Position numbers and translations under genes: made by a program. This document shows positions 2,975-30,162 of a stretch of 64,000 nucleotides of DNA, piece after piece. The DNA lies in NCBI GenBank assembly GCA_964511175.1, contig CAZEEI010000001.1, positions 147,187 to 211,186 of the forward strand. The letters are read 5' to 3'. This DNA comes from an uncultured Pseudomonadales bacterium. Lineage in GTDB: Bacteria > Patescibacteriota > Microgenomatia > UBA1400 > UBA1396. The notes below the pieces were generated by a model that was given only the letters and a program-made list of their open reading frames with translations, ran no database searches and had not been told where the DNA came from. The first letter of the stretch is position 1, and the number at the start of each line of letters is the position of its first letter.

Positions 2975-3062
2975 TCGAAAAAACCGAAAAAGATAGAACA
3001 GTTGGCCTTAACCAGTAAGTTTTAGCTGATAACTGCTTGGGCGGTAGTGTCACGTTGTCGAG

Positions 3063-3665
3063 CTAACTTTGCCGCCGCCGTTCGACCTCTGTCCAGTTGA
3101 CCACGTGCCACCAAGCCTCAATGTAGTCCGGCCGGCGGTTTTGGTACTTGAGGTAATAAGCGTGTTCCCAGACGTCCAAAGTCAGCAGGGGCGTCAAGTT
3201 TTGGCTGATCGGACTGTCTTGATTGGTGGTAGTGATAACGCTCAGTTTTTGGTTGGCATCTTTCACTAACCACGCCCAGCCGGAACCGAAAACACCACTG
3301 GCGGCGGTAGTGAAGGCAGTACGAAATGCCTCGACACTACCGAAGGTGGTAGCTAGGGCGGCGGCCAGGGTAGCGCTCGGCTCACCGCCGCCAGGGGCGA
3401 GATTGGTCCAAAAGAGACTATGGTTGTAGTGGCCGCCGCCAAAATTGCGTACCGCAGTACGAATGTCTTCTGGCACAGCAGTCAAATCGGACAAAAGTTC
3501 GGCCAGCGGTCGCTCGGCCCAGTCCGGGTGTTTGGTCAGGGCTTCGTTGAGCTTAGTGATGTAGGTTTGGTGGTGTTTGGTGTGATGAATCTCCATCGTC
3601 TGGGCATCAAAGTACGGCTCCAGAGCGTTGTAAGCGTAAGGTAAGACGGGCAAAGTATGTGGCAT
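3063..3665 (-). CDS. sodA: Fe/Mn superoxide dismutase
   Basis: N-term [28 protein letters not shown] and C-term [19 protein letters not shown] are canonical SOD signatures. Confidence 0.9.
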
Positions 3666-3706
3666 AGACCAAACCTCTCTATAAATAATAACTTAACACA
3701 CTAAAC

Positions 3707-4264
3707 TTATTTAGCCAAGGTTGGCACGTTGGCGCGGCCGTCGGCCAAAACCTGTGCCAGCCAAAAAAACTCGTCAAGGACACGTTCCAGCCGTGGTGTC
3801 CATTTAGCCGGTTCCTGGAATCGGCCGTCGATCACTTCTTTAGTAATATTACCGATATTAAGATCTTCGCGGCAAGCCACCATACCCAGTTCGCGCACTA
3901 CTCCCACCAGTGTCTCAATCATCCGTGTCCCGCCGAACGGACCAGTCGATAGGCTGACAAATGCTACCGGTTTATGAAGATATTCCTCCTGATTGAGGTC
4001 GAGGACATATTTAAGCGAACCAGAATAACCGTGGTTATATTCCGGCGCCACAATTAAATAGCCATCAGCAGCAGCGACTTGGGCGCGCAGGGCAGGTGGG
4101 CAGGCGGCCCTACCCTCGTCTTGAAAAGTGAGACCCAACTGGCGTGGGTCGATTAACTCAAACTCGCCCCTGCCCTTTTGGTTGGCCTGTTCGAGCACAA
4201 ACTGAGCCACGTACTGCGTGTACTGACCCTGGCGCAGCGAACCGGAAAAAATCAGGAACTGCAT
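3707..4264 (-). CDS. NAD(P)H-dependent FMN reductase family oxidoreductase
   Basis: MQFLIFSGSLRQGQYT start and LIVAPEYNHGYSGSLK motif; start chosen at internal Met to avoid overlap with mutM. Confidence 0.65.
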   Translation of the reverse strand: MQFLIFSGSLRQGQYTQYVAQFVLEQANQKGRGEFELIDPRQLGLTFQDEGRAACPPALRAQVAAADGYLIVAPEYNHGYSGSLKYVLDLNQEEYLHKPVAFVSLSTGPFGGTRMIETLVGVVRELGMVACREDLNIGNITKEVIDGRFQEPAKWTPRLERVLDEFFWLAQVLADGRANVPTLAK

Positions 4265-4277
4265 TACCCCAGTGTAG

Positions 4278-5138
4278 CTACTTTTGGCAATGCGGGCAAT
4301 AATGCGTCCCCCGCCCCGCCAAGCGTGTTTTGACGATAACCGTACCACAGCGGCGGCAGGCTTCCCCCATTCTCCCATAAACAGCCAGTTTTTGCGTATA
4401 GTTGCCGGTGCGGCCATTGGCATCGCGGTAGTTGCGGAAAGTAGTGCCGCGGTGTTGGATCGCGTCTTCAAGAACGTCCCGACACGCTGCCCAGAGACGT
4501 TTGCTTTCCCCAGCAGTTAAAGTATGAATTTTACGAGTTGGCCGAACTTTAGCCTGCCAGCAAACTTCGTCGGCATAAATATTGCCTAGTCCACTGATGA
4601 GTTTTTGGTTAAGTAGCAAACTTTTGATTGGTCCGGTGCGTTTGCTGAGTAAATTGCGGAAGTGAACCAAAGTAAACTCGGGGTCGAGCGGCTCAGTCCC
4701 AAATTCGGCCAGCACGGCTGCCTTTTCTGCTGGCGAAACCAACCGGAAGAAGCCGAATTGCCGCAGGTCGTTGTAGTACAGTGTACCGCCGTTGCCGAAC
4801 TGGAGAATGAGGTGGGTATATTTGTGCGGCAGAGCCGTTTCCGCCGGCGGCCACGCGTGGCCGCCGGGTGTCTTATGACCCGATTTTTGCCAAATCACTT
4901 GACCAGTCATGCGCAAGTGGACTAAAAGAGTCAACTCGGTATCACTAAGTTCAATCAGTAGTAGTTTGCCGCGTCGCTTGACGGCTATCACAGTACGGCC
5001 GATCAAATTCGACCTAAACATTTTGGCCGGATTACGTACCACCTTGGCGAGCCGGATTTCCAGTGCAGTAATTTTTTGTCCGACCAAATGCGTTTGTAGG
5101 TCACGGCGGATGGTTTCGACTTCTGGTAGCTCCGGCAT
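4278..5138 (-). CDS. mutM: formamidopyrimidine-DNA glycosylase
   Basis: N-terminal MPELPEVE catalytic motif, C-terminal CxxC..CPHCQ zinc finger. Confidence 0.85.
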   Translation of the reverse strand: MPELPEVETIRRDLQTHLVGQKITALEIRLAKVVRNPAKMFRSNLIGRTVIAVKRRGKLLLIELSDTELTLLVHLRMTGQVIWQKSGHKTPGGHAWPPAETALPHKYTHLILQFGNGGTLYYNDLRQFGFFRLVSPAEKAAVLAEFGTEPLDPEFTLVHFRNLLSKRTGPIKSLLLNQKLISGLGNIYADEVCWQAKVRPTRKIHTLTAGESKRLWAACRDVLEDAIQHRGTTFRNYRDANGRTGNYTQKLAVYGRMGEACRRCGTVIVKTRLAGRGTHYCPHCQK

Positions 5139-5219
5139 AAGTGCATTGTACGTCCATTTTTCTTGTATTAGTACGCTACTACATGGAAAAATGAACCATA
5201 ACTAGGTGCAGAATCAGGC

Positions 5220-5248
5220 TTGACAACTTTCTTTCAGTGACTTAACAT
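5220..5248 (+). promoter_or_regulatory. sigma-70-like promoter of hsp20 (TTGACA, 17 nt, TAACAT)
   Basis: -35 TTGACA at 5220-5225, 17-nt spacer, -10-like TAACAT at 5243-5248. Confidence 0.45.
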
Positions 5249-5274
5249 TGGCACTGTCTATCTAAGAGTGCTAA
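5248..5274 (+). promoter_or_regulatory. CIRCE-like HrcA operator (TTGGCACTG-N9-GAGTGCTAA)
   Basis: Inverted repeat matching CIRCE consensus TTAGCACTC-N9-GAGTGCTAA in 16/18 positions, 30 nt upstream of the hsp20 start. Confidence 0.6.
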
Positions 5275-5304
5275 TCAGCACTAAAAACAAAAGAAAGGAA
5301 ACAT

Positions 5305-5724
5305 ATGGCTTTAGTCCGTTGGAATCCCCTTTTTTCACGCCTGCTGAGCGATTGGCCGGAAGCCTGGGGTGACGAGATGGCACCGCTAACTACTAGTGCC
5401 GGTTCTGGTTTAGAGGTTTATGAAGACGAGACCGAAGTAGTGGTTAAAGCAAACGTAGCGGGTGTTCCTGAGAAGGATATCGACATTACCTTCGAAAAAG
5501 GCATGCTGAAGATTAGTGCGCAAGCTACTAAAGAGGAAGGCGATGAAAAACGTACCCACTACGCGCGTTCTTCTTGGGACTACAACTACACTGTGGCTGT
5601 TCCCGGCATGATTGACCTCAACGCTGAACCCAAAGCTGAAGTGGCTGACGGTGTGGTGACGATTAGTTTTGCCAAATCTAAAGCATCGTTGCCTAAAAAA
5701 GTAACAGTTTCGCGCAAAGCCTAG
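5305..5724 (+). CDS. Hsp20 / alpha-crystallin small heat-shock protein
   Basis: Alpha-crystallin domain pattern; RBS AAAGGAAAC upstream; CIRCE in leader. Confidence 0.8.
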   Translation: MALVRWNPLFSRLLSDWPEAWGDEMAPLTTSAGSGLEVYEDETEVVVKANVAGVPEKDIDITFEKGMLKISAQATKEEGDEKRTHYARSSWDYNYTVAVPGMIDLNAEPKAEVADGVVTISFAKSKASLPKKVTVSRKA

Positions 5725-5786
5725 GTCAGACCTATGCCAGGGTCAGACCCTGCCTAGGGTCTGACCCATGGCGGGGTCTGACCCTT
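5721..5786. repeat. cluster of four GGTC(A/T)GACC palindromic units, 18-bp period
   Basis: ggtcagacc-tatgccagg-gtcagacc-ctgcctagg-gtctgacc-catggcggg-gtctgacc read directly. Confidence 0.75.
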
Positions 5787-5842
5787 TTGACTGGCTATAG
5801 GTTGTAGTGTATAGTCGACGGCAATACCAAAAGGGGAAACCT

Positions 5843-6679
5843 ATGGCGAAGCCTCGAACGGAACTTAGTCCAGGGATGAGGGGGGAAATTGCCCGGCTTT
5901 ACCCTCTCTCAATAGCGGAGGTGCAACGACTTTTGCCAGAGCGCCGTGGTTACCAAGTGGTAGACAAACCTATTCCTTTTGGACCGGAGTTAACCAGTTT
6001 TGTTGGGCAGCATCACATCGATCTAAATGCAATTAAGGACTATAATTTAGCCTTTTTGGGTTTTGATGCAGTGCGGCGAGGTGACAATTTTGTTACCCGT
6101 CCAGGCCGTGAAGTCAGCGGTTTTGAGCCGTACTTTTTGGGCGGAGCAGAAACGGACGGTCGCGAAGTAATTAAGGGGATTGCTCGGCTTGGTAAGGAGC
6201 AAATCACCCTCATTAACAGCGACTTTTTCGGAAAAGTTGCGTGGCAGAAGGCTAAGGCGGTTTTAGATGGTAGCGGGCCAGTGACTACCGAAGCGCTCAA
6301 GACCTTAGACGATTTGTTTGTTAGAGTTCTTAACGCAGGGCGTCGGCGCATACTTAACAACCCCGTCGCTGAACAATTCCGACAGTCTACCGCACGTTTG
6401 GTCCGAGAGGCACCGGGATTCTATTTCTATTTTCCTTCCCAATCTCAATGTTTGCACAATGCCTATTACCAGATAATGCAACGTCCGCCAATACATGGTC
6501 TAAAGATGGCGCGCTTTGAGGGTGATCCGGTTGAATTACTCAGCGATGAGGCGCCTGATTTGCTAGAAGGCTGGAAGCTGATGTCCCGCTTAGGCGTTAT
6601 GGGTCACCCGGCTGTCCGTGTAGCAACCGATTATGGTTTTTTAGGTGCTCGCTATGGCGGGGCGGTGGGAAATAGGTAG
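5843..6679 (+). CDS. hypothetical protein
   Basis: ORF with RBS AAAAGGGGAAAC before ATG at 5843; no recognisable domain. Confidence 0.45.
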   Translation: MAKPRTELSPGMRGEIARLYPLSIAEVQRLLPERRGYQVVDKPIPFGPELTSFVGQHHIDLNAIKDYNLAFLGFDAVRRGDNFVTRPGREVSGFEPYFLGGAETDGREVIKGIARLGKEQITLINSDFFGKVAWQKAKAVLDGSGPVTTEALKTLDDLFVRVLNAGRRRILNNPVAEQFRQSTARLVREAPGFYFYFPSQSQCLHNAYYQIMQRPPIHGLKMARFEGDPVELLSDEAPDLLEGWKLMSRLGVMGHPAVRVATDYGFLGARYGGAVGNR

Positions 6680-6757
6680 CCCAGTCGCACGGAATCCTTA
6701 TACCCAAAATTGTTCTCTCAGTTTGACAGCGTTATAACGGTTTGCTAGCCTGGAGAC

Positions 6758-7840
6758 ATGCCTACTGCCAACGCGCCGGTCGCGACTACCAAAGATACTA
6801 AACCTACGGTGAAAAAAGCCAAAATTAAATTGGCGATTGATAAAGATGCTCTAAAAAAAGTTAACCTGGTGGCGGTGGCCTATTCGCACGTGGAGCGCGA
6901 GTGGTTTCCTACCAAAGAAGCCTATGAAGCGGAAGTGGAGGTGGAAGATCGGGCTCAAGAGGTTTTGGATGAATTAGAGAAACTAGGTATTCCGGCGCGC
7001 GGCTATGCCGGCAACCAGTACTTTTTAACTAATTTGTTGGTCGATCAGCCCAATTTGGTTCTTAATTTGGTGGATACGCTGCGGGGCAAAGATGCCTTAC
7101 AAACTTCCGTGCCGGCGGCGTTGGAGCTGTCTAATATTCCCTACACCGGCGCAGGTATGGCTGGAATGGTAATCAGCAACAACCGCAACCTCACCAAGCG
7201 TTTGTTAATGGCCTACGATATCCCGACTCCCGATTTTCAGTTTATCCGGCGCGCCGGTACCAAGGTGACAGAAGATCTTGGTTTCCCCCTCATTGTCAAA
7301 CTCAACGAAAGCGGCGGTAGCGTTGGTATCGACAATAAGGCCGTCAAGGAAAATCAAAAAAGTGTCCAGAAGAAAGTCGACACCATGGTTTCTACTTACA
7401 AAGTGCCGGTGATTGTGGAGCGCTTCATTGCTGGCCCGGAAATCACGGTGGTGGTATTCGACGACGGTAATAAAAAACACGTCGTTATGGGCGAGAAAAT
7501 TTTCCGCAAGAAGCCAGACGGCAAATATTACTTCACGTCTTTGGAAAGCTACGACGATCTACACGCCTACAAATACAAATTTTTAGACGACGAGGCTCTA
7601 GAAAGTAAAATCAGCCGTTTAGCCGTGCGGGCTTTTAACGCCTTGCAATTTAAAGATTACGCCAAGTTTGACGTGCGTATGGATAGTGAAACCGGCGTCC
7701 CCTACTTTACCGATTGCAACGCTAACACGGCGTTTGGTCCGGATCGGGGACTGCCCATGACCGAGGTACTGGCGATGTATGGCGTGTCGTTTAGCGATAC
7801 GTTAGCGAGTTTGATCAGCAAGTATGTTAAGCAACTCTAA
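6758..7840 (+). CDS. ATP-grasp ligase (D-Ala-D-Ala ligase-like fold)
   Basis: PLIVKLNESGGSVGI and VIVERFIAGPEITVVVF ATP-grasp nucleotide-binding patterns. Confidence 0.6.
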   Translation: MPTANAPVATTKDTKPTVKKAKIKLAIDKDALKKVNLVAVAYSHVEREWFPTKEAYEAEVEVEDRAQEVLDELEKLGIPARGYAGNQYFLTNLLVDQPNLVLNLVDTLRGKDALQTSVPAALELSNIPYTGAGMAGMVISNNRNLTKRLLMAYDIPTPDFQFIRRAGTKVTEDLGFPLIVKLNESGGSVGIDNKAVKENQKSVQKKVDTMVSTYKVPVIVERFIAGPEITVVVFDDGNKKHVVMGEKIFRKKPDGKYYFTSLESYDDLHAYKYKFLDDEALESKISRLAVRAFNALQFKDYAKFDVRMDSETGVPYFTDCNANTAFGPDRGLPMTEVLAMYGVSFSDTLASLISKYVKQL

Positions 7841-8444
7841 TAATGCCGGTGGCATGCAGCGTTTTCTGCAGATTTCCGAATCGCATTGCGGGGCGGCAGT
7901 ATTACAAATGTTGCTAAGCAACTTAGGTGTACTGGTTTCTCAGGACGAAATCGCCGCGGCGGCTGGCGCCACCCATACGGTTGAAGAGTATGGTTTGCGG
8001 GTGGATCAGTTGATTCTGGCTACTCAGCGACTCGCTCCTCAGGCGCAGTTTTGGTATAAGAATGAAGCCAATCTCACTGATTTAAATACGTTGGTTAACC
8101 AGTACGGTTGTCCGGTGGGAGTAGAGTGGCAAGGTGTTTTCGGCCAAGATGAGGAAGAGGAAGAAGAAGGCGAAGAAGATTATGGCCACTATAGTATCGT
8201 GACTAAGCTTGACCTCGATTACGACACCGTAGTGCTAGTGGATCCCTACCGCGACTTTGGCCTAAAGGATCGTTACTTTAACGTTGGCGAATTTCTCGAG
8301 CGCTGGTGGGATGTGAACGAAGTGTTTGACCAAACCGATAAATATTCCCGTTTGGTGGAAGATTACCATTTATTATTTATCGTGGTGCCACGCGGCGCCG
8401 CTTTTCCCAAATTGTTAGATCTACGTCATACCTGGGACGGCTAG
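7824..8444 (+). CDS. papain-like cysteine peptidase, C39/BtrH-like
   Basis: Q...ESHCGAAVLQMLL catalytic Cys motif, later GHYSIV His; start overlaps the ATP-grasp gene by 17 nt; poly-Glu linker. Confidence 0.5.
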   Translation: MLSNSNNAGGMQRFLQISESHCGAAVLQMLLSNLGVLVSQDEIAAAAGATHTVEEYGLRVDQLILATQRLAPQAQFWYKNEANLTDLNTLVNQYGCPVGVEWQGVFGQDEEEEEEGEEDYGHYSIVTKLDLDYDTVVLVDPYRDFGLKDRYFNVGEFLERWWDVNEVFDQTDKYSRLVEDYHLLFIVVPRGAAFPKLLDLRHTWDG

Positions 8445-8686
8445 TGCCCCATCATTTTCCAAAGATGCGCGCCAATAGCAATACCAACTAGGACCCAACC
8501 CCAGAACAAAATATCGCTAACGCCAAAGTAGCTCACCACCAACAGAGCCAGCCCAGCCCCACCGATCAAATGGGTGATCCCCTTCCAACTGGCGCAGCAG
8601 CCCATCATGGTGCCACCGCCGCATTCGCCGCCGCAGCAACAACCGCCGTGCATCATCATTTTTCCAGACCTTTTTGCCATATACAT
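8441..8686 (-). CDS. Cys/Met/His-rich small membrane protein
   Basis: MMHGGCCCGGECGGGTMMGCCASWKG N-terminus followed by two predicted TM helices. Confidence 0.45.
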   Translation of the reverse strand: MYMAKRSGKMMMHGGCCCGGECGGGTMMGCCASWKGITHLIGGAGLALLVVSYFGVSDILFWGWVLVGIAIGAHLWKMMGH

Positions 8687-8792
8687 CCTCCTTTTTTGTG
8701 GCTATCTTTATGTTGCTTAACTTTTGTCCGGTAGTCAAGGGAGGATAACAACGGTTGTGTTACAATCTGAGCTAGTTAGATAAGGAGAACCT

Positions 8793-9170
8793 ATGCTGTG
8801 GGATCAGGAAGTTATTGATGGATTTGATATTGAGCCCGAAGATGTGCGCCGCCTACCACCCCTATCCGATTTTGGTTTTCCGGGTGAGGATATAAGACCA
8901 GCACAAATATTACCGCTTGAACGGCGAAAACAAGAATACTGTCGTCAGTTAACCGAATTTTTGTTTACTTCAGCGGCTTGGTCTCGAGACGTAGCTAGAC
9001 GTCTAGCCGATTTGATTGTGGCTTTTCAATCCGGTCAATACTCGCCAGCCGGGGCGCCGACAGAATATGCCGAAATGGTTGAAATGTTGCAGAGGTTAGG
9101 TGAGCAAGATTCCCACTTACTAGACCAGCTACGGACAGAGGTACAGTCGCTTTTTCCACAGACAAGGTAA
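8793..9170 (+). CDS. hypothetical protein (paralog of 9730-9969)
   Basis: RBS AAGGAGAAC; shares FLF..W...RLA(D/E)LIV...LFP(Q/R)(T/N)R with the downstream ORF. Confidence 0.45.
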   Translation: MLWDQEVIDGFDIEPEDVRRLPPLSDFGFPGEDIRPAQILPLERRKQEYCRQLTEFLFTSAAWSRDVARRLADLIVAFQSGQYSPAGAPTEYAEMVEMLQRLGEQDSHLLDQLRTEVQSLFPQTR

Positions 9171-9172
9171 GC

Positions 9173-9553
9173 TTATTTTACAGAACAGCGCAGAGTCTGT
9201 TCTAACTGCGCGCCGGCGGCGTGTACAAAATGATGTTCTACCCAATCCCAGACTGGCTGGAGAACCGGCACCAGAGTTCGACCCAAAGGTGTCAGGTGGT
9301 ATTGCGTGCGCGGCGGAATTTCGGCAAAAATACGCTTCGAGATCAATCCATTTTTGATTAGTCGCTGCAGTAGCGCTGCCACGGTTTTTTCCGCAATCTT
9401 CTCTTCTTGGGAAAGTAAAGTGCAAATTTCACCAAAACGGCGCGGTTGGGTGGCTAAAGCGCCAATAATCCGAATAGTGCGGGGATTGGTGACCAAAAAG
9501 AAAACTTCCCAGTATACTTCCTGCGCTCCAGTACTTACTTTAAAAAATTTTGG
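9173..9553 (-). CDS. HxlR-family winged-helix transcriptional regulator
   Basis: CTLLSQEEKIAEKTV...GLISKRIFAEIPPRTQYHLTPLGRTLVPVLQPVWDW matches HxlR pattern; start taken at MPKFFK. Confidence 0.7.
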   Translation of the reverse strand, partial: PKFFKVSTGAQEVYWEVFFLVTNPRTIRIIGALATQPRRFGEICTLLSQEEKIAEKTVAALLQRLIKNGLISKRIFAEIPPRTQYHLTPLGRTLVPVLQPVWDWVEHHFVHAAGAQLEQTLRCSVK

Positions 9554-9729
9554 CATCGCCAGTAACTTACCATAATTCCCCTTACTTACCAAATGGTAAG
9601 CTACTTTCCGGACAAAAACAAAACAAAGACAACTCTGCTGACTAGTATAGCTTGAGTCGCTATGTCAGAATTTGACTAAGTTATTGATTTAACCAAGGAG
9701 AATTTGATGCCGCCCCATCGATCAAAAAA

Positions 9730-9969
9730 GTGGAGGCCGTCGCTGCGTTACACCAAAGACACGAAATGTATGATGAACTGTGTAATTTCCTGTTTAATTC
9801 AACCGACTGGTTCCCAGAAAGGACCCAACGTCTGGCAGAGTTAATTGTAACTTACAAAACCGATCCTTTATCATTCACCAGTTTGTTGAACCGATTAAAA
9901 GCGGGAATAAGTTTGCTTTTCCCCAGAAATAGATATCTTACACTAAGTACAAAAATCCTGAGGGGTTGA
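9730..9969 (+). CDS. hypothetical protein (paralog of 8793-9170), possibly N-terminally truncated or frameshifted
   Basis: GTG-start ORF homologous to the C-terminal two thirds of the 8793 ORF; a different-frame ATG at 9707 carries the conserved RBS. Confidence 0.35.
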   Translation: MEAVAALHQRHEMYDELCNFLFNSTDWFPERTQRLAELIVTYKTDPLSFTSLLNRLKAGISLLFPRNRYLTLSTKILRG

Positions 9970-9978
9970 TAAAACAGA

Positions 9979-10620
9979 CTATGTTTTCTGATTTAAATCT
10001 GCAAACTTTTCTACGCCAGCAGTAGTGGCAATGAGCTCGATGTAACCTTTTACTTTCTCTTGCACTGAGGGCAATCTGTGAGATGGAGCTAGATAATTGT
10101 TGGAATTTCTGTTTGCATACTCACTCAGTAAATCTATAGCCTTTTTAACTAAAGCAGCGGCAGCCAGGTCGTCCTTATCTACGACCACTGACATCGCAAT
10201 TTTTAGAATAGCATCAACCGCCTGACCATGGATTTCCCCCTCATTGCTTTTGTCTAGCAGTTCGAGTCTTCTAGCAACCTGGTCTAACCCAGCCTCTTTT
10301 ACTTTTAAATCATCTTCTCGATCAGCGGCATCAGCGATAACGTCAACTGCCTCTTTTTGCACTGAGGGCAATCTGTGAGATGGAGCTAGATAATTGCTGG
10401 AATTTCTGACAGCATAGTCGCCAATGCTTTGCAGACCAGCTATCTTAACTGCTGCGCTACTATCTGCAGCGGCAACAATCTTTGCTAAGGCTACTAGTGT
10501 TTCTCGGTGGAGAGAACCATCATCTGAAGAATCTATTTTATCAAAGCCCTGAGCTAGAGCTTTTATTGCTTCCAGCTGAACATCAACTAATGCGTCAACT
10601 GGGCGTACTGATTCTGGCAT
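9979..10620 (-). CDS. repeat-containing hypothetical protein
   Basis: Peptide RNSSNYLAPSHRLPSVQ occurs twice; encoded by two 55-bp direct repeats. Confidence 0.45.
   Translation of the reverse strand: MPESVRPVDALVDVQLEAIKALAQGFDKIDSSDDGSLHRETLVALAKIVAAADSSAAVKIAGLQSIGDYAVRNSSNYLAPSHRLPSVQKEAVDVIADAADREDDLKVKEAGLDQVARRLELLDKSNEGEIHGQAVDAILKIAMSVVVDKDDLAAAALVKKAIDLLSEYANRNSNNYLAPSHRLPSVQEKVKGYIELIATTAGVEKFADLNQKT
10066..10415. repeat. two about 55-bp direct repeats (10066-10120 and 10360-10415) inside a CDS
   Basis: ttgcactgagggcaatctgtgagatggagctagataattg(t/c)tggaatttctg present twice, about 295 bp apart. Confidence 0.7.
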
Positions 10621-10667
10621 AAACTTTCTCCTGTAATTTTATATACTCATTGTACATCACTTAATTT

Positions 10668-11555
10668 CTATTGAAACGCTGACCACAGCTTACTGACGTC
10701 ATGGGGTCTGACCTCATCGACGAGTTCCGTGGTGGCGCCGGCGCGCGACGGATGGCGGTCCAGAAACGTCGCTTGGTCTTGCCGTTCGTACAGTACACCG
10801 ATCGCGATTTTATTTTCTAAGTCCGCCGCCGTCGCGCGCGCTTGTTCCCAGTTAGTTGGATCGTAATTTTTCATTTGGGCGATATCGTAAACCCGTTCCT
10901 GGTACCACTCATGTGGGGTCGACTTATTGTAGGTGGGACAACTTTGCAAAACCTCAACAAAGCTGAAACCTTTGTGCTGAATGGCTCGTTGGAATACACC
11001 AGTCATATGGTGGATGTCGCCAGAGAAAGTGCGGGCGGCGAATTGAGCGCCCAGCTCCAAAACCAAGCGGATTGGGTTAAGTGGGGTCGCCACTGGACCG
11101 TTAGGGGCCGAGTTCATCGCAACGCCTGGTTTAGTAGTGGGCGAAGCTTGTCCCGTAGTGAGGCCGTAGTTGAGGTTATTATGGAGGACAAAGGTGAAAT
11201 CATAGTCGTGGCGAACCGCCGTAATGAGGTGGTTGATGCCTTCCGCCAGGGTGCCGCCGTCGCCGCCAAAAGCCAGTACCTTGACCCGGCGGTTCGCCAC
11301 CGCCGCCCCGCTGGCCAGCGGCAGGACGCGCCCGTGGAGGCCGTGAATCCGGTAGCCGTCGATCTTATCCGAGTGGTTACCGTGGCAGCCGATGTCGAAG
11401 GCCAGCAAAACCTGGCAAGGATGAAGATTTTCTACTTGCAGGGCGCGCCGCAGGGCGCCGTGGATGCCGTAGTTGCCGCAGTTAGTGCACCAGGTGTGAA
11501 TATTCGGCGACAGATAATCGCCCATTTGTACTGGTTGGTCGCTGTGGCAGCTCAT
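10668..11555 (-). CDS. korB: 2-oxoacid:ferredoxin oxidoreductase beta subunit (TPP-binding)
   Basis: CxxCG..., GDGG...NN.YGLT TPP-binding signature typical of OFOR beta subunits. Confidence 0.85.
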   Translation of the reverse strand: MSCHSDQPVQMGDYLSPNIHTWCTNCGNYGIHGALRRALQVENLHPCQVLLAFDIGCHGNHSDKIDGYRIHGLHGRVLPLASGAAVANRRVKVLAFGGDGGTLAEGINHLITAVRHDYDFTFVLHNNLNYGLTTGQASPTTKPGVAMNSAPNGPVATPLNPIRLVLELGAQFAARTFSGDIHHMTGVFQRAIQHKGFSFVEVLQSCPTYNKSTPHEWYQERVYDIAQMKNYDPTNWEQARATAADLENKIAIGVLYERQDQATFLDRHPSRAGATTELVDEVRPHDVSKLWSAFQ

Positions 11556-13300
11556 GCGGACTCCTTGTTGAAGTGTTCGAGAATATCGTCCACAAAGAAC
11601 GGTCGGCCGTCGAACTTTAGCCAGCGATCGGTAAAGGTAATCCCAGTGTGCTGGGTGATCAGGCCACCCAGTTGGCCGGTGGCGTTGTTTTCCACGATAA
11701 TCAACTTTTGAGCTGACTGCGCAAATTTTTTCAACACCATCGTTTTTAACGGCCAGAGATATTCGTAGTGCAGGTAATTAACGCTGGGACCACCTTGTTC
11801 AGCCAAGGCTTGAATGGCATCCAGCACTGGTCCTTTTACACTTCCCCACCCCACCAGCGACCACTGCGCTTGCTCTGGACCATAAACCACCGGCTCCGGC
11901 AATTCCGCTGCTAAAGCATCAAGTTTGCGCAAACGTTTGGCGTACATCGCCGCGCTGGCTGCGCCATCCTCCGTAATGGAACCGTCGGTGGAATGTTCGT
12001 CGCCGTTGGCGTCATAAGTAGCGTCGGCTTGGCCTGGCAGCCAGCGCGGCGAAACTCCGGAATCGGTGAATGCGTAACGGTCGCTGGGTTTGAGTTGGTC
12101 AAGTTGATTGTCCGGCACGAGTCCCCGTTCGATCGGCAAGTTGTCCGGTATTTTACTCATTTGCCACAATGATTCCGCCACATTCTTTTCGGTCAATAAG
12201 ACGGCCGGCAGTTGGTATTTTTCGGCTAAGTTTAAGGCGTGTTGGACTAAACGGTAACTGGACTCACCATCGCTGGCGGCTAAAACTAGCCTGGCGAACT
12301 CACCGTGACCGCTGTAAATAGCGAGGTTAAGGTCGGCCGCGCTGGTCCAGGTAGGTAAACCAGTAGCCGGTCCGGGCCGCTGAGCCAGGACGCACACCCA
12401 GGGACACTCGATCATGCCTGCCAGGGAAAGCGATTCGGTCATCAGGTCAAAGCCGCCGCCGGAAGTGCCACACAGCGTCCGCGCCCCCATAAACATACTG
12501 CCGATGGTGGTTTGGGCTACACCGATTTCGTCGTCTAACTGCTGAACTAACATTCCTACTTCGCCGGCGACTTCGGCCAAATAAGTGAGGATGGTGCTGG
12601 CGGGTGTCATGGGATAGGAATAGTAGGCGCGGACGCCGGCGGCGGCCGCGCCGAGGGCAGTGAGGTGGTTGCCGCTAATAATCGCATCGTCTTGGGTGTT
12701 TGCCGATCGCGCGAATGGCCAAACCACAGGTGTAACTTGGGTTAGTTTTTGTTCAAAGCCGCGTTGAGCGCAGACGAAGTTGCCCTCTAGTACCTGTGGT
12801 TTGGCCGCAAAGACTTTAGTAAGTACTTGTTTGATCGTGGCTAAGTTTAGTCCCAGCACCTGCCAGAGAGCGCCCATTAGGACGGTGTTGGCCATGATCC
12901 GTTTGCCGCAGACTTCGATCGAAACTTGGAGGGCGTCGACAAACTCCACGGTAATCCGGTTCTCGTCCAGCCATTGTTTTTCGTCCGGTTTTAAATCGAG
13001 ACGCGGAATGTCGTGAAGGATGCGTCCGCCAGGGTTGACGGTTTTCAGGTAGTGGTGCAGGGAAAAACGGCTCAAGCTCAACAGAATGTCGCACCCTCCG
13101 GCGCTGGAATAGATTGGTCGGTCGCTTAAATCAATCTGGTGCGAAGCTTTCCCGCCTTCAATCAACGACGGATATTCACGGTAACTAAAAGTGTAACAAC
13201 CCTCCCGCTTGAAAGCGCGACCCAGCAGCTCGCCCATCGAGGTCAGACCCTGCCCGTTTTCGCCAACCAACTTAATGCTTAAACGATGCTGATCAACCAC
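11552..13300 (-). CDS. korA: 2-oxoacid:ferredoxin oxidoreductase alpha subunit (gamma-alpha fusion)
   Basis: N-terminal gamma-like GENGQG region fused to pyrimidine-binding alpha domain; 4-nt overlap with korB. Confidence 0.85.
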   Translation of the reverse strand: MVDQHRLSIKLVGENGQGLTSMGELLGRAFKREGCYTFSYREYPSLIEGGKASHQIDLSDRPIYSSAGGCDILLSLSRFSLHHYLKTVNPGGRILHDIPRLDLKPDEKQWLDENRITVEFVDALQVSIEVCGKRIMANTVLMGALWQVLGLNLATIKQVLTKVFAAKPQVLEGNFVCAQRGFEQKLTQVTPVVWPFARSANTQDDAIISGNHLTALGAAAAGVRAYYSYPMTPASTILTYLAEVAGEVGMLVQQLDDEIGVAQTTIGSMFMGARTLCGTSGGGFDLMTESLSLAGMIECPWVCVLAQRPGPATGLPTWTSAADLNLAIYSGHGEFARLVLAASDGESSYRLVQHALNLAEKYQLPAVLLTEKNVAESLWQMSKIPDNLPIERGLVPDNQLDQLKPSDRYAFTDSGVSPRWLPGQADATYDANGDEHSTDGSITEDGAASAAMYAKRLRKLDALAAELPEPVVYGPEQAQWSLVGWGSVKGPVLDAIQALAEQGGPSVNYLHYEYLWPLKTMVLKKFAQSAQKLIIVENNATGQLGGLITQHTGITFTDRWLKFDGRPFFVDDILEHFNKESA

Positions 13301-26155: not shown

Positions 26156-27660
26156 CGGCGCTGGTAAATACCAAACTTTTCGTAGCTGTAAACTAGAACA
26201 TAATTTTTCTTAAAATCGGGATTGTTTTTTATCGCTTGATAAACCAGGTCGGCGGGATAAGACATGGTGGCGATATACTCCACGTTAGCGGACGGTTGTT
26301 TCAAAGCATTATCCCAATACTCCCGTGTGCCTTCGTGGACGTAAAGTTTCATAGGCAGCTGGGCGCGGGCCACAAAAGCATCGTGGGAGGCCAAACTGGT
26401 TAGGATCAAACCATCCTGGTAATGGTCGGCCAACCACCGGCTGGCCTCAACGGTGTAACGCGTATTGGCCAAACCCCTCAGACCGTCGACGAGGGTGATC
26501 GGTAAACCCTGATGAACAAAGATTATTGACTGTAAGATCAATATACCCGCTACCACAGGGAATATTTTTTTCCGTGAGGCCAAAATACCCAGCACCACCG
26601 CTAAAGCTGGCAGGGTCAATAGCCCGTAGCGGATGTTAAAGAGGCCGGGATTTTGTGCCGCTTGTGGCACGTTCATGGCCGATTGACCCAGGTATAAGGC
26701 CAACACGTTAAACGCCAAAGGAGAAAGTATGGCTAACAAAATGACCAATTGTTGTTTGGATTTAATCAGCCAAGGCGCGGCTAGTAAGCCAGCCAGTGAC
26801 AATAAGGCAATAATTAAACCATTGTTGGCAACTACCGCCCAAAGATAATAACTGAGTGATAACCACAGGTTGCCTTGGGTAGGTAGCTGGCCAGCGCTTT
26901 CTAAAACTTTTTGCTGGGCATAAGCCGAATAAGGGCCGCGGATGAAATATAAAGCGTCGCCAAAAATGGTTAAGTTCCATAAAAACCACAACAATATTCC
27001 CAAACCACCCAGGCTGACAAATAGGACAATAATTCCCTCAGCTTTTTTTCTGCCCAGTACTACCCAACTCCAGATTAACAGCAGTGCCGTGGTGCACAGC
27101 AAGAAAAACCAACCATCATACCTAATGAGCGTGGCGGCCATGATACAAACACTCGCCAAAAGCAAATGGAGTATTTCTTTATCCTGGATAAATTTAGCCA
27201 GGAAATAAGTGGCCACAATAAAGCTGGCGATCAGTAGTGTTTCCGTCATAGGAGTGGTGGCCAGGTAGAGCAAATTAGGATTAAGCCCCAGTACGAGGGT
27301 GCCTAGTGCCGCGGCCGGTTTATTTTTCGTTAGCAGCAGAATTAGCTGGTAAGTAAAAAATACGGCGGCAACGTACGCTGCCAACGAAACAATACTGCCC
27401 GCTAAAGCGGTGTGCCACATCATGTCATTCCAAGCCAGCGGTAACATCAGTAAGTGAGGTAGGGGTAGCCAAACGGTACCGATCTGTGCGAGTCCAGGAG
27501 TAAGGTTATCAATCATCCGGCGGGCAATATTGAGGTGGGAAGCGGCGTCATTATAAGTAAGGACATAACCATGGGAAAAAGAAAAGTACCAAGCGACTAA
27601 CGCCGCAACCACAGCGAACAACAATAAAAATTTGTCGTTACGACCGATTTTTTTGAACAT
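26152..27660 (-). CDS. polytopic membrane glycosyltransferase, GT39/GT83 (PMT/ArnT)-like
   Basis: About 12 predicted TM helices then soluble C-terminal domain. Confidence 0.4.
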   Translation of the reverse strand: MFKKIGRNDKFLLLFAVVAALVAWYFSFSHGYVLTYNDAASHLNIARRMIDNLTPGLAQIGTVWLPLPHLLMLPLAWNDMMWHTALAGSIVSLAAYVAAVFFTYQLILLLTKNKPAAALGTLVLGLNPNLLYLATTPMTETLLIASFIVATYFLAKFIQDKEILHLLLASVCIMAATLIRYDGWFFLLCTTALLLIWSWVVLGRKKAEGIIVLFVSLGGLGILLWFLWNLTIFGDALYFIRGPYSAYAQQKVLESAGQLPTQGNLWLSLSYYLWAVVANNGLIIALLSLAGLLAAPWLIKSKQQLVILLAILSPLAFNVLALYLGQSAMNVPQAAQNPGLFNIRYGLLTLPALAVVLGILASRKKIFPVVAGILILQSIIFVHQGLPITLVDGLRGLANTRYTVEASRWLADHYQDGLILTSLASHDAFVARAQLPMKLYVHEGTREYWDNALKQPSANVEYIATMSYPADLVYQAIKNNPDFKKNYVLVYSYEKFGIYQRR

Positions 27661-28543
27661 AAGGTTTGGCTGGTAGTGAAAATAGCAGTGAACCTAGAAT
27701 GCCAGGAATAATGGTGTCAAAAAGAAACAGCAACAAACTTACACTCACCGCCACTTCAGCAGCCACACCAAACGGAGCCAGCAAATAAATCGCGACCCCT
27801 TCCCGAATACCCAGACTGCCAATAGTGATTGGTACCAAATTAGTCAGGAGGACCAGCGGGAAAACCATTAGTACCGTTGCTACAGTTACGGACTGGAAAG
27901 CGTTCAGCAGTAAATAAGCCTGAAGGAAGTAAACCGACATGGTGAGGAAAGAGAGAATCAGGAGAATATTCGACAGCGGCCAAGAAACTAAGGTGAATCC
28001 CCGGAGGATATTTTTAAGCAGTTCAAAAGGAATGAGGTCGGTAAGGGCTTTATTAAGACGGCGGAACTGGTAAAAGAAAAGTAAAATTACAGCCAAGATA
28101 CCGATAATCACGATAGAGTTTGCCTGCGTGAGCAGTCTTTGACCGCCCAGTAAGACAAAGAAAATGACGATCCATAGTTCGGATACTTTATCGACGAAAG
28201 TCAGTGAGCCAAGTTGGAGTTTGTTGCCCTTCATGCCTATTACGCGACCCAGCTCCCCGATTCTAGAGGGGGTGACGAGTCTGGTTCCTCGAAGATAGGA
28301 TTGCATTGCCCCCCAAAAAGTATTGTCTGAATGCAGTTGTTTTGATAATAAATACCATTTGTAACTTTTGATAAGGATATGAATGATGATTAATATCATG
28401 GCTAATAAAACATTTTTTTGTTGAACTGAAAGCAGGGATTGCCAGACGGAATAAGTAGCAACTTTACCAAGAATAAAAATTAACAAGATAATGGTTAACA
28501 ATAATCGGCTGAAAAATAAAAAATTTTTTTCTTTCACATCCAC
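27638..28543 (-). CDS. flippase-like (UPF0104 / LPG-synthase TM-like) membrane protein
   Basis: Multi-TM pattern typical of flippase-like proteins co-encoded with GT2 enzymes. Confidence 0.45.
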   Translation of the reverse strand: MDVKEKNFLFFSRLLLTIILLIFILGKVATYSVWQSLLSVQQKNVLLAMILIIIHILIKSYKWYLLSKQLHSDNTFWGAMQSYLRGTRLVTPSRIGELGRVIGMKGNKLQLGSLTFVDKVSELWIVIFFVLLGGQRLLTQANSIVIIGILAVILLFFYQFRRLNKALTDLIPFELLKNILRGFTLVSWPLSNILLILSFLTMSVYFLQAYLLLNAFQSVTVATVLMVFPLVLLTNLVPITIGSLGIREGVAIYLLAPFGVAAEVAVSVSLLLFLFDTIIPGILGSLLFSLPAKPYVQKNRS

Positions 28544-28560
28544 GCTTCTTTCTTAATTAT

Positions 28561-30162
28561 TCATTTATTGATTTTGTACAGCTTCCAATCCTCAAATGCC
28601 TTCTCTAGAGTTGTAAAATCTGTTCCATTTTCAAATATTCCTGGGAACCTTCTGTTTATAGCATCCAAATCTCCTACTCCACCTAACTTATGTACCAAAA
28701 TATAACCAACCTCATCATTTATGACTGGGTCCAAAAGAACTTCTTCAAAGTTATCATCAATAGTTTCAATGAATATAGATGGTTTTTGCGTATAATACAC
28801 AATAGGAAAACCCATAAAATCGTCAACCAAGATTTTCTTCGGCCATGTATTGTTTTTAATATATTGTGCTATATGCATGTCTTTCTGATAACTCCAATCT
28901 TCAATTTGTGATAAATCACTGTATAAGGTAGCTTTGACTAATTGATTTTCCTCCCTTCCTATTTTTGGATTAGCCATCGCATACAGCGAGCTAACAGACG
29001 AAATAACGATAATTATAACAGCACACAAAAGAGTTATATAAAAATATGTCCTTTTTTTAATATTAGCAATAATATATCCAAGAAATATGTAAGCAGAGGG
29101 TAATACATAAATGAAGAATCTTAACCAACCGAAAGATTGTCCTTTATATAGCAGTATGGCGTGAAATAACAGTACCGACATTGTTGGTAATAGTAAACTT
29201 ATACATAACAAGTGTTCTTTATTTTTTATTCCCTTAATAATCGCAAATATACAAAACACTAAATAAGCGGGAAATAAAAGGATCACTCTTTGTAAGAAAA
29301 ACAAAGATATTTTTCCAAAGTTATATTGCATATTTCTGAAAGTATTATCACTTTCGATAAGTTTTTCTGACTGGGCGGTATTCGAATAAATACTTGTTAA
29401 AAAGTAAAACGGATCACCCATGATTATCCAGTTGGCCAGAATCCAAATTGAAATTATAAAAAACACTGGTGTTAGAAATAAAAGAATCGTTCCTTCGATT
29501 TTTTTAAAACAATTTTTTTGATAATTAAGAAATACAGAGATGCCAATTATCAACATAATTACTGGAATTAATGCTGCTAATTCCCAACGAGTCATTACGG
29601 CTAACGATGTCGAAATACCTAACTTTAATACGTAAGACAGACTTCTTGTGCTTAGGTATGCGACTAAAAAATAAGTTGTAGTTGTAACAAAAAGAACAGC
29701 AATTGCTTCAGACATTCCGTTCGATCCAAAAAATAAAATCATTGGGTTTAAGATAAACATAAAAAGAAATAGTAATCGTAATACAAAGCCGATATTGAAA
29801 TATTTATAGATCTTATTTAGATAGACTGCCGTTAATGCCATGAATATAGCGCTAACAACATTGCCGGCAAACCCAAGATTATTGAGTGGGTTAAACAAAA
29901 CTAGGGGTAGTTGAACAAGTGTAGGAATGGGCGGCCAAACGAAACCTATGGCTGTAAGTTTGGGTTGATTGCCAAAGAATACGCTATATGCATGGAAACT
30001 TCTGGAGAGAGCGTCTCCGTAAACAAACTGTAATTTAAAAACTAGTACGTAGGCAGCAGCGATAAAGACCGTAAATGGCGTCAAAAAAAATAAAATATTC
30101 TCAATATTCTTTTTTATCATGTTGCCAGCTGTGTAATGCAATTTATTTATCCACTTTTGCAT
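28561..30162 (-). CDS. polytopic membrane protein, second GT39-like paralog (AT-rich gene)
   Basis: Multi-TM N-terminal region plus soluble C-terminal domain; markedly lower GC than neighbours. Confidence 0.4.
   Translation of the reverse strand: MQKWINKLHYTAGNMIKKNIENILFFLTPFTVFIAAAYVLVFKLQFVYGDALSRSFHAYSVFFGNQPKLTAIGFVWPPIPTLVQLPLVLFNPLNNLGFAGNVVSAIFMALTAVYLNKIYKYFNIGFVLRLLFLFMFILNPMILFFGSNGMSEAIAVLFVTTTTYFLVAYLSTRSLSYVLKLGISTSLAVMTRWELAALIPVIMLIIGISVFLNYQKNCFKKIEGTILLFLTPVFFIISIWILANWIIMGDPFYFLTSIYSNTAQSEKLIESDNTFRNMQYNFGKISLFFLQRVILLFPAYLVFCIFAIIKGIKNKEHLLCISLLLPTMSVLLFHAILLYKGQSFGWLRFFIYVLPSAYIFLGYIIANIKKRTYFYITLLCAVIIIVISSVSSLYAMANPKIGREENQLVKATLYSDLSQIEDWSYQKDMHIAQYIKNNTWPKKILVDDFMGFPIVYYTQKPSIFIETIDDNFEEVLLDPVINDEVGYILVHKLGGVGDLDAINRRFPGIFENGTDFTTLEKAFEDWKLYKINK

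Follow-up and report, generated by a model that had tools for sequence, protein, structure and literature searches.

A Ddl-type ATP-grasp ligase paralog paired with a C39/phytochelatin-synthase-like cysteine enzyme in Patescibacteria and Anaerolineae

A stretch of 64,000 nucleotides (hereafter the window) from contig CAZEEI010000001.1 of assembly GCA_964511175.1, recorded as an uncultured Pseudomonadales bacterium and placed by GTDB in Patescibacteriota, was analyzed with a focus on two overlapping forward-strand genes at positions 6758-8444. The first encodes a paralog of D-alanine-D-alanine ligase (Ddl) and the second a stand-alone papain-fold enzyme, referred to below as the ligase and the Cys enzyme. 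Their features are as follows (DdlB is the E. coli enzyme).

6758..7840 (+), 360 aa: Ddl-family ATP-grasp ligase paralog
6932..6943 (+): ligase codons E59-V60-E61-V62, corresponding to DdlB E15-x-E17-V18, the first-substrate amino-group motif; invariant in 69/69 family members
7664..7720 (+): ligase catalytic block K303-F-D305 ... D319-x-N321, corresponding to DdlB R255, D257, E270 and N272
7824..7840 (+): 17-nt overlap of the ligase gene and the Cys enzyme gene
7824..8444 (+), 206 aa: stand-alone, predicted cytoplasmic Cys-His-Asp papain-fold enzyme, between the C39, C39_2 and phytochelatin-synthase families
7869..7889 (+): Cys enzyme codons Q16 to C22 (QISESHC), with the oxyanion-hole Gln and the nucleophile Cys
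8142..8183 (+): acidic loop GQDEEEEEEGEEDY of the Cys enzyme, residues 107-120, ending two residues before the catalytic His122
8187..8243 (+): Cys enzyme codons H122 to D140 (GHYS...VDP), with the catalytic His and Asp

Layout and conservation of the gene pair

The ligase ATG is preceded at a distance of 3 nt by GGAGA, and the Cys enzyme start at 7824 is backed by homologs with like N-termini (MPNSFD.., MPNESN..). The 17-nt overlap between the ATP-grasp and peptidase genes, reported in a first-pass annotation of this DNA, was read in the sequence at 7824-7840. Among relatives, the conserved Gln codon of the Cys enzyme lies 16-52 nt past the ligase stop in 56/57 cases, and an in-frame ATG overlapping the ligase gene by 14-38 nt is present in approximately 40 of the 57. 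Since the two reading frames overlap, translational coupling of ligase and Cys enzyme is suggested.

Scanning one GTDB genome per species with the Cys-enzyme alignment yielded 80 loci, to which three assembly loci were added for a total of 83. The ligase gene was found directly upstream of the Cys enzyme gene and on the same strand in 80/80 species loci and in 83/83 loci overall, so that the pairing noted at first pass extends to related genomes, and a reverse search from three ligase homologs recovered the Cys enzyme directly downstream in all three. In the loci retrieved, 6758-8444 is a self-contained two-gene operon whose partners always occur together. By record title, 33 of the 80 loci belong to Chloroflexota (mostly Anaerolineae), 27 to Patescibacteria, 19 to "uncultured Pseudomonadales/Gammaproteobacteria" and one to Bacteroidota. 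The titles of these 19 metagenome-assembled genomes (L013, L019, L035, L038, L042, L046, L057, L060, L061, L065, L067, L069, L070, L075, L076 and L079-L082) look unreliable, because their loci interleave with those of Patescibacteria in a neighbor-joining tree of the ligase and have a similarly low GC content (0.33-0.48).

The surroundings of the pair were surveyed in the same 80 loci. When all open reading frames (ORFs) within 8 kb of the pair were clustered all-versus-all, the largest other family, a DEAD-box helicase, occurred in 10/80 loci, a recurrence that is due to local synteny. When the flanking ORFs were scanned with Pfam (150 in the nearest position and 138 in the next), no family had more than 8 members. 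Among these 288 neighbor ORFs, PP-binding or other carrier domains were not within the top 25 families matched, ABC_tran was not among the top families, no C39-ABC exporter was found, and genes for Mur enzymes, penicillin-binding proteins (PBPs), amidases and polyamine metabolism were not enriched. Likewise, no carrier-like ORF was detected at positions 3000-12000 of the window, no conserved small ORF resembling a precursor occurred within 700 nt on either side of the pair in the 80 loci, and no double-glycine precursor was found beside it. The pair is autonomous and requires no other conserved neighbor. Two further associations were considered and set aside. A copper or thiol link was raised by a P-type ATPase cluster within 8 kb in 7 loci, but it was weak, with an HMA domain in only 2 immediate neighbors and Ca/Mg-type pumps in the others. 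A defense system was the second, and here there were neither PADLOC matches nor relatives in viral contigs (IMG/VR).

A Ddl paralog and its papain-fold partner

The description of the first gene product as a Ddl-like ATP-grasp enzyme was borne out by a match to Pfam Dala_Dala_lig_C (9.9e-21), by an hhalign comparison with E. coli DdlB (probability 99.9) and by an AF2 model (pLDDT 84) whose top Foldseek matches in the PDB were all Ddl enzymes, with TM-scores up to 0.86 at 20-24% identity. Residues 1-33 form a Lys-rich disordered tail that is variable and Lys-rich across the family (median net charge +4.5), and the remainder is a Ddl-like three-domain body. Scores against the NCBIfam Ddl models were 109.2 bits for NF002378 (cutoff 243) and 101.5 bits for TIGR01205 (cutoff 245.65). 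In two loci, L073 and L076, a second Ddl gene lies directly after the pair on the same strand; its product reaches 180-190 bits against NCBIfam Ddl and retains Ser150, Tyr216 and Arg255. These loci thus contain three-gene strings of ligase paralog, Cys enzyme and canonical Ddl (L073:985-3807 and L076:6791-9637). One JGI contig carries a second Ddl together with a class A PBP within 7 kb of the pair, and no second Ddl copy was found in the 64-kb window. Compared with the 180-190 bits of the L073 and L076 proteins, its 109 bits mark the ligase as a paralog within the Ddl family and not the housekeeping Ddl, and a canonical Ddl exists beside it in at least two genomes. Public records call it "D-alanine-D-alanine ligase", "ATP-grasp domain-containing protein" or "hypothetical protein", so reconstructions of metabolism in which it figures as Ddl may be wrong. 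Fusions of the ATP-grasp and C39 domains were also sought, but the two long homologs P0149 and P0164 carry junk N-terminal extensions from mis-called starts and no C39 domain.

Sixty-nine family members were aligned jointly with E. coli DdlB (sequence identical to 2DLN), and the following DdlB positions were found to have counterparts that are invariant in 69/69 sequences.

DdlB Glu15/Glu17/Val18: ligase E59/E61/V62
DdlB Lys97: ligase R143
DdlB Lys144: ligase K181
DdlB Glu180: ligase E221
DdlB Glu187: ligase E228
DdlB Asp257: ligase D305
DdlB Glu270: ligase D319
DdlB Asn272: ligase N321

Two further positions are replaced just as uniformly: Ser150 by G187 and Arg255, which is conserved among Ddl and Van ligases, by K303 (each in 69/69). 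The omega loop and the C-terminal loop that holds the carboxylate of D-Ala2 also differ from those of DdlB. On the basis of these kept and altered residues, the ligase, with a complete ATP/Mg catalytic set, should be active; its first substrate is most likely an amino acid whose amino group is free, and the pocket for the second substrate is predicted to be different.

This combination raises the possibility of cell-wall precursor editing, in which the Ddl paralog would make an alternative terminus of the stem peptide, or add a side-chain or cross-bridge residue, while the Cys enzyme would remove the normal dipeptide or terminus, following the logic of VanA with VanX/VanY, or recycle wall peptides. 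A kept first-substrate Glu with changed second-site residues is what a new second substrate would call for, the ligase has only Ddl or Van enzymes as its closest relatives, whether sequence or fold is compared, and the canonical ddl genes of L073 and L076 and the Ddl and class A PBP of the JGI contig lie close to the pair. Both proteins are predicted to be cytoplasmic (see below), and MurF could take the product, so no extra partner would be needed. However, adjacency to ddl is confined to 2/80 species loci and the one contig, the neighbor ORFs show the lack of Mur, PBP and amidase enrichment described above and include no racemase or dehydrogenase partner, and the substitution of Arg255 by Lys is universal in the family. 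The ligase is, moreover, more conserved than the essential Ddl, which would be unusual for a specificity variant. We consider wall editing rather unlikely.

The degree of this conservation could be gauged in two ways. Between L073 and L076, identity is 84% for the ligase, 71% for the canonical Ddl and 60% for the Cys enzyme; across 61 genomes, the ligase has a median identity of 60% and the Cys enzyme one of 44%. The ligase is slow-evolving, and slower than the essential Ddl in the sole genome pair in which the two can be compared. Such conservation across phyla would fit a macromolecular partner, as would the Lys-rich disordered tail, and cycles of an ATP-grasp ligase and a Cys peptidase acting on proteins are known. 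The ligase might accordingly attach one or more residues to a conserved protein, at its C-terminus or on a side chain, as RimK and tubulin-tyrosine ligase (TTL) do, with the Cys peptidase removing them in the manner of vasohibin. This kind of protein tagging is nevertheless quite improbable: in Ddl, the counterpart of the invariant Glu59/Glu61 motif binds a small first substrate by its free alpha-amino group, the fold is that of the closed-pocket Ddl rather than RimK, TTL or LysX, and no candidate target gene is linked to the pair.

The Cys enzyme scored 30.7 bits against Pfam C39 (PF03412; gathering cutoff 22) and 23.0 bits against Peptidase_C39_2 (PF13529; cutoff 24), and it had no match to Pfam Phytochelatin (PF05023) at E<=0.1. 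Among 88 relatives evaluated at E<=0.05, 87 matched C39, 86 matched C39_2 (best 1.7e-10) and 33 matched Phytochelatin weakly (best 3.1e-5), and none matched BtrH_N (PF14399) or DUF3335. The papain-like part of the initial assignment is sound, as the C39-type papain fold has its Gln, Cys, His and Asp intact and the Cys/His pair holds in a proper alignment; the BtrH-like part finds no support among the 88 family members. Q16, C22, H122 and D140 are all invariant in a 22-sequence alignment; across the 88 sequences this still holds for H122 and D140, with Q16 and C22 at 90% conservation or more. In the AF2 model (pLDDT 90), helix 22-32 has Cys22 at its N-terminus and His122 opens a strand, as in the papain fold. 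The best fold match in the PDB was Nostoc Alr0975, a primitive phytochelatin synthase solved as a gamma-Glu-Cys acyl-enzyme (E 4.8e-7), closely followed by the C39 domains of ComA and PCAT1. When the family profile was compared with all PDB sequences, Alr0975 ranked first (E 2.3e-4), with H122 and D140 aligned to its His and Asp, and no C39 exporter domain was retrieved at E<=1. The Cys enzyme has no N-terminal hydrophobic signal or signal peptide, so ligase and Cys enzyme should both be cytoplasmic.

In phytochelatin synthase the second-substrate cavity is shaped by Arg152, Lys185 and Tyr186 (AtPCS1 numbering; PMC3855540), and in an alignment through Alr0975 none of them is conserved in the Cys enzyme. 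The position of the B-loop 3 Arg is taken by GVEWQG and the acidic loop, and the segment after Asp140 reads P-Y-K/R-D-F versus V-A-R-F-K-Y in phytochelatin synthases. Judged by these cavity residues, the Cys enzyme is not a phytochelatin synthase. The acidic loop, which contains a DEEEEEEGEED run and is modeled with low pLDDT (60-77), was found in 151/151 relatives with a length of 8-45 residues and a median acidic fraction of 0.62, and its net charge is always negative. Both the Q...ESHCGAAVLQM signature and the Glu run singled out at first pass are therefore present, but the run, described then as a linker, is a loop beside the active site and does not join two domains.

An acidic loop by the active site would suit a cationic substrate, and this leads to another possibility, an antagonistic synthetase and amidase. 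The ligase would build a conjugate of an amino acid with a polyamine or another cationic amine, and the Cys enzyme would control how much of it is present by hydrolyzing the bond so formed. In E. coli, Gss provides a precedent, with an ATP-grasp synthetase and a papain-clan (CHAP) Cys amidase that act on the same bond, and the strict 1:1 pairing would fit. Alr0975, for its part, mostly hydrolyzes the bond made by the ATP-grasp enzyme GshB (PMC3855540). On the other hand, a bond made and broken by co-translated enzymes would amount to a futile cycle without regulation, and regulatory elements are not evident; the Cys enzyme belongs to the C39/phytochelatin-synthase type and not to CHAP, the ligase is of the Ddl and not the Gss type, and polyamine genes are not enriched nearby. 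We regard this possibility as unlikely.

Adjacent genes and the rest of the window

Two further genes flank the pair.

5843..6679 (+), 278 aa: protein without family assignment; neighbor, judged outside the module
8441..8686 (-), 81 aa: small Cys/Met-rich protein with two hydrophobic helices; neighbor, judged outside the module

All four ORFs are real genes and not chance ORFs. Relatives found in databases number 1487 for the ligase, 246 for the Cys enzyme, one (56% identical) for the small ORF and 9 for the 278-aa ORF. The last of these had been listed with 279 aa; the ORF is there with a length of 278 aa, and a GTG at 5807 is an alternative start that would extend it to 290 aa. Its product had no Pfam, NCBIfam or PADLOC match, and its 9 relatives were found among 1.84 billion representatives, which makes the family very rare. 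One of them, a protein of 1724 aa, matches in 8 stretches, which looks like repetition of the unit. In the loci set, relatives occur only in the nearest genome (L003/L004), approximately 6 kb upstream of the pair.

The small ORF is convergent with the Cys enzyme gene and overlaps its 3' end by 4 nt. As described before, it has a Cys-rich N-terminus, beginning MYMAKRSGKMMMHGGCCCGGECGGGTMMGCCASW, followed by two hydrophobic stretches; public gene calls begin it two codons later (79 aa). In a word-indexed search of 5.8 billion proteins the 81-aa protein found only itself. The one relative found is located at L004:10314-10583 (-), approximately 2 kb downstream of the pair, with the same two-helix body and a Met-rich N-terminus (MMMEKGMMPHDKMMGMGWMSCCG) in place of the Cys-rich one, and no relatives were present in the other 79 species loci. 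This exchange of Cys for Met hints at a soft metal as ligand, and the sequence suggests a small membrane protein that may bind such a metal and is unrelated to the pair. Both this peptide and the 278-aa protein are judged to be unrelated neighbors outside the module, since their relatives occur only in the nearest genome and are displaced from the pair. The idea that the Cys-rich peptide serves as a substrate or partner of the two enzymes does not agree with this distribution.

The first-pass annotation had also proposed peptide ligation of the BtrJ/BtrH type or ribosomal-peptide maturation. Under such readings, the pair would carry out thiotemplated transfer as in BtrJ/BtrH or CtaD/CtaG, or would mature the Cys-rich peptide as a peptide made by the ribosome and modified after translation (RiPP). 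Pairs of an ATP-grasp enzyme and a papain-fold transacylase do operate in the pathways to butirosin and closthioamide (PMC7183216), the structure of CtaG weakly matches the Cys enzyme (E 5.9e-4, TM 0.55/0.39), and in the window the Cys-rich ORF abuts the pair. Yet a carrier protein is present in the locus for 95% of CtaD homologs (PMC7183216), whereas carrier families are missing from the top 25 of the 288 neighbor ORFs and BtrH_N from the 88 Cys-enzyme relatives. As for a RiPP, the Cys-rich ORF is absent from 79/80 species loci and displaced in the remaining one, no conserved small ORF or C39-ABC exporter accompanies the pair, and the ligase is of the Ddl type and not of the graspetide/RimK type. 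Thiotemplated transfer and RiPP maturation are highly improbable and are largely refuted by the neighborhood data.

Elsewhere in the window, the following features were observed.

3063-3665 (-): Fe/Mn superoxide dismutase-like, named by sequence reading
3707-4471 (-): FMN reductase; start probably over-called, domain from residue 70
4278-5138 (-): Fpg/MutM-like, named by sequence reading
5305-5724 (+): Hsp20, closing a stress-type gene run (3063-5724) upstream of the pair
8793-9170 (+) and 9730-9969 (+): 125- and 79-aa weak paralogs of each other (24% identity, E 1.8e-4) without a Pfam family
9173-9592 (-): HxlR-type regulator gene, between these two paralogs
9979-10620 (-): 213-aa protein with an internal duplication, NS(S/N)NYLAPSHRLPSVQ occurring twice; in Pfam only weak, sub-threshold EF-hand matches
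27638-32419: 533-aa ORF without a Pfam match, LPG_synthase_TM protein and 758-aa double GT2 glycosyltransferase

The GC content falls to 0.34 at 28-30 kb, compared with approximately 0.48 elsewhere, and the region 27638-32419 possibly represents an envelope-glycan island that was acquired. Scans of the whole 64-kb window revealed neither tRNA genes nor Rfam matches at the gathering score.

Proposed reaction and relation to known systems

We tentatively propose, while stopping short of calling it probable, that the ligase makes a small amide and that the Cys enzyme transfers or hydrolyzes its acyl part via a thioester. At the expense of ATP, the ligase would link an amino acid whose amino group is free with a second partner, which would be handled unlike the D-Ala of Ddl. 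The Cys enzyme would then attack that amide bond, or a close relative of it, to form a thioester, and the acyl part would go either to an amine, in a transpeptidation, or to water. The amine is the favored acceptor and, as the acidic loop suggests, may be cationic. The logic would be that by which phytochelatin synthase follows glutathione synthetase, or that of BtrJ/BtrH without a carrier protein. Transfer is favored on three grounds. Co-translated synthesis and hydrolysis would be futile; the acidic loop occupies the site of the phytochelatin synthase acceptor cavity; and the closest papain-fold enzymes form acyl-enzymes on the products of ATP-grasp ligases (Alr0975 on glutathione; CtaG and BtrH, PMC7183216). 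CtaG, BtrH and phytochelatin synthase have been described as papain-fold enzymes that act as transacylases through a Cys thioester (PMC7183216).

Several observations weigh against this proposal. The mechanism is proposed from homology and gene order, and over its full length the Cys enzyme has moderate structural matches (TM 0.57-0.60). The alignment of the ligase omega loop is ambiguous, and the counterparts of Lys215 and Tyr216 shift between HMMER, hhalign and MAFFT. Because the second-site residues of phytochelatin synthase are not conserved, transpeptidation is not implied by the sequence and hydrolysis is equally compatible with it. Finally, the charges of the ligase N-terminal tail and of the acidic loop showed no positive co-variation (n=27 pairs), which gives no support for a contact between the two.

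By analogy with glutathione synthetase and phytochelatin synthase, the proposal could be carried further to a carrier-free two-enzyme relay for peptide building that is specific to Patescibacteria and Anaerolineae, a version that we consider unlikely. The Ddl-like ligase would store the energy of ATP in a dipeptide-like bond, the C-terminal residue of which would be the leaving group, and the Cys enzyme would transfer or polymerize the acyl unit onto a cationic acceptor. If this were true, the product would be an as yet undescribed abundant small peptide, conjugate or wall modification of these reduced-genome bacteria. The genomes of Patescibacteria (the Candidate Phyla Radiation, CPR) are very small and encode few biosynthetic pathways, yet the module is kept in many of their lineages and in Anaerolineae. 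The identity of its product would provide a defined reaction for organisms whose biochemistry is mostly unknown, and would show if a C39/phytochelatin-synthase-like enzyme can be the carrier-independent transpeptidase partner of a Ddl-type ligase. No published description of the pair was found in a literature search that left most subscription journals out of reach.

Among known systems, Ddl itself (E. coli DdlB, 2DLN; P. aeruginosa DdlA/B, 8EVx) has in common with the ligase the three-domain ATP-grasp fold, the ATP/Mg residues and the Glu15/Glu17/Val18 motif. The ligase differs in an insert of approximately 14 residues after strand 1, in its omega loop and its Lys-rich N-terminal tail, in its low identity and sub-cutoff NCBIfam scores, and in the replacement of Ser150 by Gly and of Arg255 by Lys; in addition, a canonical Ddl exists alongside it, and the gene for the Cys enzyme always comes next. 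Nostoc Alr0975 (peptidase family C83; 2BU3/6THO) and the Cys enzyme share Q-x5-CG, GH-x-S and the catalytic Asp. Both are single-domain proteins of approximately 200 aa (202 aligned columns), and the action of Alr0975 on the product of an ATP-grasp ligase can be likened to the relation of the Cys enzyme to its ligase partner. They differ in sequence (17-19% identity) and in the acidic loop that stands in place of B-loop 3.

The C39 domains of bacteriocin exporters (ComA, PCAT1) have the same catalytic set and a core that superposes well, with a TM-score of 0.83 over the 135-aa ComA domain. Unlike them, the Cys enzyme has no fused or adjacent ABC transporter and no double-glycine precursor, and it possesses approximately 65 extra C-terminal residues with an invariant RWWDxN, in addition to the acidic loop. 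BtrJ/BtrH (butirosin) and CtaD/CtaG (closthioamide) resemble the pair in uniting an ATP-grasp ligase with a papain-fold enzyme that transfers acyl groups through a Cys thioester. Those systems are, however, templated on carrier proteins and their ligases are not of the Ddl type, whereas the pair has neither a linked carrier nor BtrH_N. Gss resembles it in the strict coupling of an ATP-grasp synthetase to a papain-clan Cys amidase on a small-molecule amide, but is a single fused protein of CHAP and Gss type, while the pair consists of two proteins of C39/phytochelatin-synthase and Ddl type. The pairing of ATP-grasp and papain-fold enzymes is thus a known theme, and what is new here is a Ddl-type ligase that is strictly coupled, without a carrier, to a stand-alone C39/phytochelatin-synthase-like enzyme.

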